The notes: a model not told the origin generated them from the letters alone. Shown: positions 23,342-23,986, numbered from the stretch's first letter. The stretch: 32,000 nucleotides of DNA from Wolbachia endosymbiont of Litomosoides sigmodontis (GCF_013365435.1 NZ_CP046577.1:720001-752000); one strand, 5' to 3'. Translations and numbers: made by a program.

Positions 23342-23986
23342 TCAATCACTTTTTTTTGATTTATCAACTATACCAATTGCATAACCAATTTCATCCTGTA
23401 AGTCATTATGGTCATTCCTTTCATCATAGTTCAATTCTTCAATTCTGCTTTCTAACTCCAACTTAATTATAGTATTAATTTTGTCTATATTGTTGAGAAA
23501 GCTTTTACAGTCTTCATCGCTATACTCCTCACCAGATGCCCTTTTTTCAATGAATAAACCTTTAAAGTCTATTAAATCAGAATTCTGGTCAGTATTGAGT
23601 ACAATATTTCTCTCAATGAAGCTAAGATCTGACAGCAGTAAACTAACCTCTAATAGATCTTCGCTTTTAATATTTGTAAGATTATTAATATTATTTAAAA
23701 TATTAAATATCTTAAGCTCCTCCTGCACAATTTCGCGATCTTCCTGATCAAATTCAGACAATAATCCTCTATCATTTACGAGCTTCTCATTAAGAGCTTT
23801 ATCTAGCTTTGAAAGATTAACATCACTTTGCTTGATACTATCCAACAATAAGTCTACTCTTGCTCTACGCGCATTCAAAATATCATCATAATTATTTAAC
23901 TTTATGTTACCATTGTCATCTTGTTGCAGTCTATAATAATCAAAGCCCTTGAAATTTCTTTTACTAGCCTTGTTATTCCTATTCAT
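23342..23986 (-). CDS. Hypothetical acidic, helix-rich protein (214 aa), translationally coupled to the upstream virB6 paralog
   Basis: The ATG at 23986 lies inside 'aATGAATAG', the end of the 1098-aa gene (8-nt overlap). There is no signal peptide or TM segment. The protein is D/E/N/K/L-rich with the C-terminal tail 'IVDKSKKSD'. I recognise no family. Confidence 0.6.
   Translation of the reverse strand: MNRNNKASKRNFKGFDYYRLQQDDNGNIKLNNYDDILNARRARVDLLLDSIKQSDVNLSKLDKALNEKLVNDRGLLSEFDQEDREIVQEELKIFNILNNINNLTNIKSEDLLEVSLLLSDLSFIERNIVLNTDQNSDLIDFKGLFIEKRASGEEYSDEDCKSFLNNIDKINTIIKLELESRIEELNYDERNDHNDLQDEIGYAIGIVDKSKKSD

Follow-up and report, generated by a model that had tools for sequence, protein, structure and literature searches.

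The 214-aa ORF that overlaps the 3' end of the fourth virB6 paralog of the Wolbachia endosymbiont of Litomosoides sigmodontis (wLs) is a real gene and a member of the already known WD_0853 family. Genes of this family directly follow virB6-4 in every Wolbachia locus that we compared, and within the reach of a HMMER search the family is confined to Wolbachia. Our preferred reading, to which we give a little less than an even chance, is that WD_0853 is a cytoplasmic accessory partner of VirB6-4 or of the rvh T4SS machine, acting inside the bacterium and not an effector. To the published record the present analysis adds the restriction to the genus, the universal junction with virB6-4 despite rearrangement downstream, a map of constraint along the protein, and evidence against a C-terminal secretion signal. 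The DNA analysed is a 32,000-nt stretch of the wLs genome (NZ_CP046577.1:720001-752000), hereafter the window; the coordinates of its relevant features are collected in Table 1.

Table 1. Features at and around the WD_0853 gene of wLs, in window coordinates
Feature	Position	Strand	Basis or remark
RsmD	22348..22896		
Sigma-70-like site TTGACA-16-AATAAT, just 5' of RsmD	22921-22948	minus	11/12 consensus matches
Inverted repeat 3' of the WD_0853 stop; 60-nt arms, 57-nt loop, 93% complementary	23096..23272	.	RNA fold -83.6 kcal/mol, z = -12.7
WD_0853-family CDS, GOY07_02995 of wLs, 214 aa, ATG start	23342..23986	minus	ORF and translation
Variable C-terminal tail, aa 201-214, ..GIVDKSKKSD	23345..23386	minus	pN/pS 0.87, least constrained part
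Conserved block 3, aa 166-183, INTIIKLELESRIE helix	23438..23491	minus	Invariant columns; pN/pS 0.17
Conserved block 2, aa 106-131, near-invariant EDLLEVSLLLSDLSFIERN..LN	23594..23671	minus	Invariant columns; pN/pS 0.10, lowest of the gene
Conserved block 1, aa 11-51, NFKG..YY.LQQD..GNIKLN.YDD.LNARRARVDLLLD, beta-hairpin and first helix	23834..23956	minus	Invariant columns; pN/pS 0.14
8-nt overlap ATGAATAG; WD_0853 ATG within the final virB6-4 codons and stop	23979..23986	minus	Sequence
Shine-Dalgarno-like AGGTAGGA, 3-10 nt 5' of the WD_0853 ATG, within the virB6-4 CDS	23990..23997	minus	Read from the sequence
virB6-4 paralog, 1098 aa	23979..27275	minus	Pfam TrbL/VirB6 PF04610, 3e-09
TrbL/VirB6 ORF	27381..30473		Pfam; upstream of virB6-4
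TrbL/VirB6 ORF	30470..31759		Pfam; upstream of virB6-4

The ORF matches the NCBIfam model NF049852 ("WD_0853 family protein") with a score of 331.9 bits (E-value = 1.1e-99), the alignment covering aa 11-204 of the ORF and model positions 1-194 of 194. NF049852 is a curated equivalog model with a whole-protein cut-off of 150 bits; since the family is thus curated and named, the protein has to be regarded as already known. None of the other NCBIfam families matched. A protein search retrieved GOY07_02995 of the L. sigmodontis endosymbiont at 100% identity, and 153 clusters altogether. Among the 120 matches listed, identities ranged from 69 to 86%, and the named sources were Wolbachia or "Rickettsiales bacterium" contigs with one exception, the spider Trichonephila clavata. 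The wLs protein agrees with WD0853 of wMel and WBM0792 of wBm in length, in its place after the fourth virB6 and in all the invariant blocks, and its predicted start lies four residues ahead of that of most orthologs.

The product has a mass of 24.9 kDa, a pI of 4.6 and a net charge of -15, the N-terminal 20 residues being basic. Leucine (13.6%), asparagine (12.6%), aspartate (12.1%), isoleucine (9.3%), glutamate (8.9%) and lysine (8.4%) dominate its composition. The Kyte-Doolittle mean over a 19-residue window reaches a maximum of only 1.16, so that the protein has neither a transmembrane segment nor a signal peptide; it is a soluble, acidic, mostly helical protein. These properties bear out the sequence statements of a first-pass annotation of the same DNA, which had placed the ATG inside the end of a 1098-aa virB6 paralog on the same strand with an 8-nt overlap, and had described a 214-aa product rich in D/E/N/K/L and devoid of signal peptide and transmembrane segments; the helix-like peptide and the KSKKSD tail that it quoted are both found in the translation. 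It was mistaken, on the other hand, in presenting the protein as unrecognised, as NF049852, a proposal by Wu et al. in 2004 and an effector screen that included WBM0792 all precede it.

Its statement that no family could be assigned holds at the level of an orphan family. A HMMER profile built from 18 diverse WD_0853 members and run against 1.84 billion representative proteins retrieved 13 sequences, consisting of one full-length representative and fragments. The apparent restriction of the family to Wolbachia is based on this search. Four of the 13 were inspected and proved to be truncated, degenerate or mis-joined copies of this family. Three database proteins (P0121, P0125 and P0128) are truncated or internally deleted WD_0853-like sequences, in P0125, for instance, the tail at the C-terminus follows straight upon aa ~1-112. 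Such sequences could represent pseudogenes, or Wolbachia DNA moved into host genomes. Pfam yielded no match even at E = 10, and neither did PHROG, PADLOC or the PDB sequence profiles; a tblastn search of phage genomes and plasmids was equally empty. Structure prediction, which the first-pass annotation had proposed together with profile searches as a check, gave a model for which the best Foldseek match in PDB has an E-value of 1.9. Neither approach pointed to a housekeeping family or a known fold, and the Pfam, PDB and Foldseek searches revealed no resemblance in sequence or fold to the chaperones, adaptors and structural subunits known from T4SSs.

The genomic context was compared across 23 loci, comprising 21 loci from genomes sampled at one per GTDB species, a divergent 1.6-kb contig (L022; CABPRJ010001668.1, assembly GCA_902439185.1) and the window itself. 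WD_0853 lies directly 3' of virB6-4 in 23/23 of these, and a copy apart from virB6-4 was found in none of the loci scanned. An overlap of 8-26 nt joins the two ORFs in 18 loci; in the other five they are separated by at most 18 nt. Orthologs share 58-86% identity across every Wolbachia locus examined, and 65-86% between nematode mutualists and arthropod parasites. The most divergent copy (58% identity, 180 aa) is that of L022, which lacks the basic tail. The downstream side is variable. RsmD follows WD_0853 in 12 loci; in five others that we inspected the neighbours differ and include a 320-aa multi-pass membrane protein, a methionine-aminopeptidase-like ORF and a dUTPase-like ORF (these non-RsmD neighbours were named by eye, without searches), and in L022 a different ORF on the opposite strand lies beyond the gene. 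As the junction with virB6-4 is constant while the downstream genes vary, WD_0853 is linked to virB6-4 and not to its downstream side. In one metagenome-assembled genome (Wolbachia sp. DFT4, locus L017, about 1727-5005), the open frame of virB6-4 preceding WD_0853 is limited to 722 codons, although the full protein aligns there by tblastn; a frameshift, a stop codon or a fault of the assembly would account for this.

The median dN/dS (Nei-Gojobori, pairs with 0.05 < dS < 1.5) is 0.14 for WD_0853, 0.19 for virB6-4 and 0.13 for RsmD. Judged by these ratios, WD_0853 is under purifying selection of a strength equal to that acting on its neighbours. Among the filarial Wolbachia genomes scanned, even the smallest (864-958 kb) carry an intact copy. 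Synteny and conservation downstream of the last virB6, together with dN/dS, were among the checks that the first-pass annotation had proposed: the position directly after virB6-4 is kept in all 23 loci, and the gene is present and intact in relatives and does not evolve neutrally.

The gene has a published history. In wMel, Wu et al. (2004) described a 15.7-kb operon, WD0859-WD0853, extending from virB3 to WD0853, obtained RT-PCR products across WD0854-WD0853, indicating co-transcription, and called WD0853 a novel T4SS component (PMC368164). The later accounts that we consulted give the operon as virB3, virB4 and the four virB6 genes, leaving WD_0853 out. The virB6-4 gene of wBm is WBM0793, which WBM0792 follows in the numbering of locus tags. 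The 47 putative T4SS effectors of Carpinone et al. (2018) include WBM0792, which they cloned and which carried the annotation of a hypothetical protein with "eukaryotic-like motifs" (PMC6160203). The published cloning primers match both ends of the window ORF, which confirms the orthology. Dual RNA-seq of Brugia malayi soma and germline detected WBM0792 transcripts at similar levels in three sample sets (PMC7787461). The literature that we searched contained no interaction, localisation, genetic or translocation data for any member of the family.

Given the 8-nt overlap, co-transcription of WD_0853 with virB6-4 is very likely in wLs as well. The first-pass annotation argued that there is no space for a separate promoter; this is correct for the intergenic space, but a promoter could still lie inside virB6-4. 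Promoter-like hexamers within virB6-4 show no excess, 14 being found against 15.7 expected from shuffled sequence. The AGGTAGGA element is a putative Shine-Dalgarno sequence that may serve WD_0853. Ribosomes terminating on virB6-4 might then re-initiate at the overlapping WD_0853 start, and with such translational coupling the protein would be made beside VirB6-4 and in a fixed proportion to it.

The position of the gene immediately after a "short" VirB6-4 (about 1100 aa) raises the question of whether WD_0853 could be a detached form of the long C-terminal extension known from Ehrlichia and Anaplasma, or what is left of a fifth VirB6 such as Rickettsia has, existing as a split cistron or being joined to VirB6-4 by frameshifting. 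VirB6-4 of Ehrlichia and Anaplasma exceeds 2000 aa and has acidic, hydrophilic C-terminal regions (PMC2764437; PMC7648143), and the five VirB6 paralogs of Rickettsia could be set against four plus WD_0853 in Wolbachia. As in the VirB6-3 and VirB6-4 extensions of Anaplasmataceae, a hydrophilic acidic sequence is here found 3' of a VirB6 core at the operon end; in contrast to them, WD_0853 is a separate polypeptide, free of repeats and of detectable homology. The homology searches argue against such an origin: when the profiles of WD_0853 and VirB6-4 are aligned by hhalign the probability is 0.1%, no local match in a non-Wolbachia VirB6 appeared among the 1.84 billion proteins searched with the WD_0853 profile, and neither PF04610 nor any other Pfam family identifies WD_0853 as a TrbL/VirB6 member. 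Derivation from a duplicated VirB6 segment is accordingly rejected at the detectable level. Joining by a programmed frameshift was likewise rejected. The frame relation and the distance between the two ORFs vary from locus to locus, and in the window a stretch of just 15 nt ahead of WD_0853 is open in its frame, so that there is no conserved frameshift site. The lone apparent VirB6-4::WD_0853 fusion (P0122, 410 aa; L022, 26-1302) is a eukaryote-style gene call on the Wolbachia-like 1.6-kb contig, the DNA of which holds two ORFs sharing 1 nt. We therefore regard a detached extension or a paralog relic as very improbable.

VirB6-4 itself begins with a lipobox-like sequence, carries its TrbL/VirB6 membrane domain between aa 348 and 560 (Pfam, hydropathy), and has a C-terminal part made of a conserved domain (about aa 885-1050) followed by a variable basic tail. 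The conserved domain retains 45% identity even in the most divergent locus. The N-terminal sequence MQLRLSKFWFRSLLLVTYVLVTGC (27203-27275, minus strand) resembles a lipoprotein signal with a lipobox-type cysteine; a study of Anaplasma states that in filarial Wolbachia it is VirB6-3, not VirB6-4, that was identified as a putative lipoprotein (PMC7648143).

Constraint along WD_0853 is uneven, being concentrated in three blocks of invariant columns (Table 1), and the first ten residues have a pN/pS of 0.60. The structure model is poor overall (mean pLDDT 60-61). Residues 11-50, with pLDDT values of 81-92, are the sole confidently modelled part. Residues 106-131 fall below a pLDDT of 50 when the protein is modelled alone by AlphaFold. 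This segment is therefore at once the most conserved and the least confidently modelled, a combination that would fit a segment folding upon a partner, and we consider it a candidate partner-binding segment.

The C-terminus is of interest since the first-pass annotation took its charged tail as a possible secretion signal. No other part of the protein is under so little constraint, and the comparison of orthologs makes the tail weak evidence for such a signal. A small lysine cluster (2-4 lysines) makes the last eight residues net positive in 20/23 loci, but over longer stretches the charge is reversed: the last 20 residues are net negative in 21/23 orthologs and the last 30 in 22/23, net positive termini being limited to 2/23 and 1/23, respectively. 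The corresponding net charges of the wLs protein are -2 and -4. In L022 the protein ends with ...NEEIIE and the tail is absent. Because of its net negative charge and near-neutral evolution, the WD_0853 tail is unlike a VirB/D4-type C-terminal signal.

These observations bear on the possibility that WD_0853 is a substrate of the rvh T4SS, that is, an effector encoded at the end of the operon for the machine, which would recognise its C-terminus and pass it into the host. A Wolbachia-specific, helical and hydrophilic protein that has no bacterial housekeeping homolog would suit this role, Carpinone et al. ascribed "eukaryotic-like motifs" to WBM0792 and selected it as a candidate (PMC6160203), its expression in B. 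malayi tissues (PMC7787461) also speaks for it, and the lysine cluster of the last eight residues keeps a substrate role open. Besides the charge and the evolution of the tail, however, the degree of conservation argues against it, for 65-86% identity between mutualists and parasites, with an omega below that of virB6-4, is unusual in a protein at the host interface. WBM0792 was moreover absent from the eight yeast growth inhibitors and the six zinc/caffeine-sensitive strains reported, a negative result that is weak because only 24/47 constructs were shown to be expressed (PMC6160203). On balance we hold a role as translocated substrate to be quite unlikely.

In compact genomes, unrelated genes frequently overlap, and genes without a functional connection may likewise be neighbours in an operon and coupled, which counts against an accessory role. 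WD_0853 might thus have a Wolbachia-specific cytoplasmic function apart from secretion (e.g. in regulation or cell biology), being a passenger on the 3' end of the virB operon. It has no similarity to any T4SS protein, and T4SS operons of Rickettsiales are known to have unrelated company: ribA and wsp adjoin operon 1, and in Ehrlichia and Anaplasma the corresponding operon starts with sodB (PMC7648143). Against a mere passenger speak a junction that persists in all 23 loci while the downstream side was rearranged several times, and the lack of a copy away from virB6-4 in any locus. We consider an unrelated function somewhat unlikely.

The accessory role that we favour would have WD_0853 work within the bacterium as a partner of the T4SS machine, in its assembly, its stabilisation or the docking of substrates, with no export of its own. 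It would most likely touch VirB6-4, either at the conserved domain near the C-terminus or at the basic tail, with the ATPases of the T4SS as an alternative, and the contact could be made through the invariant blocks (aa 11-50, 106-131 and 166-183). The contrast in charge between the acidic WD_0853 and the basic VirB6-4 tail speaks for this reading. The C-terminal domains of VirB6-3 and VirB6-4 are reported to be surface exposed in Anaplasma (PMC7648143); were the VirB6-4 domain surface exposed in Wolbachia too, a cytoplasmic partner could not bind there.

Known secretion systems offer partial parallels. The secretion chaperones and adaptors of T4SSs (e.g. VirE1, IcmS/IcmW/LvgA, CagF) are smallish, acidic, helical and cytoplasmic proteins, encoded in the secretion locus and coupled to a neighbouring gene. 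WD_0853 is likewise acidic, helical and cytoplasmic, and is encoded in a secretion locus with a putatively coupled start, but at 24.9 kDa it is larger than most of them, gave no match to them in the sequence and fold searches, and has as its neighbour a membrane channel subunit and not a substrate. VirB5 is the pilus-tip or stalk subunit that rvh systems lack. WD_0853 is similar to it in size (about 220 aa), helical content and adjacency to virB6. In contrast to VirB5, its N-terminus is basic, non-hydrophobic and devoid of a signal peptide, so that Sec-dependent export to the periplasm is not expected; the gene stands after virB6 instead of before it, and VirB5-type Pfam models do not match even at E = 10. 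As WD_0853 has neither a signal peptide nor a family match, the idea of a divergent VirB5 was rejected.

The 3' boundary of the unit is marked in wLs by the large inverted repeat, which occurs once in the window. It lies within a WD_0853-RsmD gap of 446 nt, compared with about 100 nt in most other loci. This palindrome sets the wLs locus apart from the others; a match to the region was found elsewhere only in the wLbra locus L001, the sequence of which ends inside it. The repeat may be the operon terminator or a palindromic insertion, perhaps both. A 107-aa ORF (22969..23292, minus strand) was considered as a further operon gene and rejected; it spans the palindrome with the 60-nt arms and, as its only match is in the same wLbra locus, it is probably not a gene. 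The sigma-70-like site suggests that RsmD is transcribed apart from the virB operon in wLs. With the large repeat, the doubtful 107-aa ORF and this promoter-like site, the unit seems to end with WD_0853 as its final cistron in wLs.

Elsewhere in the window, three stretches of 1.1-2.9 kb each (10688-13589, 15552-17265 and 21228-22347) contain no ORF of at least 100 aa and no Rfam or tRNA gene. That at 21.2-22.3 kb, with several short same-strand ORFs (41-64 aa), is possibly the remnant of a gene. Two proteins encoded beyond RsmD in another Wolbachia locus (L002) gave no tblastn match. An 860-aa ORF (470-3052, minus strand), overlapping by 4 nt the end of the upstream MurJ gene (3049..4542), matches no Pfam family at E <= 1e-5 and is uncharacterised.

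Wolbachia presumably manipulates insects and supports filarial nematodes by way of the rvh T4SS, the parts list of which is debated. WD_0853 is conserved throughout the genus under a constraint equal to that on genes of the machine. A bolder form of our preferred reading, which is possible but doubtful, is that WD_0853 is a dedicated, genus-specific cytoplasmic subunit or adaptor of the rvh T4SS, of a type undescribed in other T4SSs, that would dock on the conserved VirB6-4 C-terminal domain through EDLLEVSLLLSDLSFIERN and then stabilise the expanded VirB6 stack or hand over substrates. If true, a genus-specific subunit would partly explain how the Wolbachia T4SS manages without VirB1, VirB5 and VirB7. 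Were WD_0853 a substrate instead, it would be a rare core effector common to mutualistic and parasitic strains. As an accessory subunit, it would be a Wolbachia-specific part of the machine, could aid the reading of in situ densities, and would offer a symbiont-specific target in filarial nematodes.
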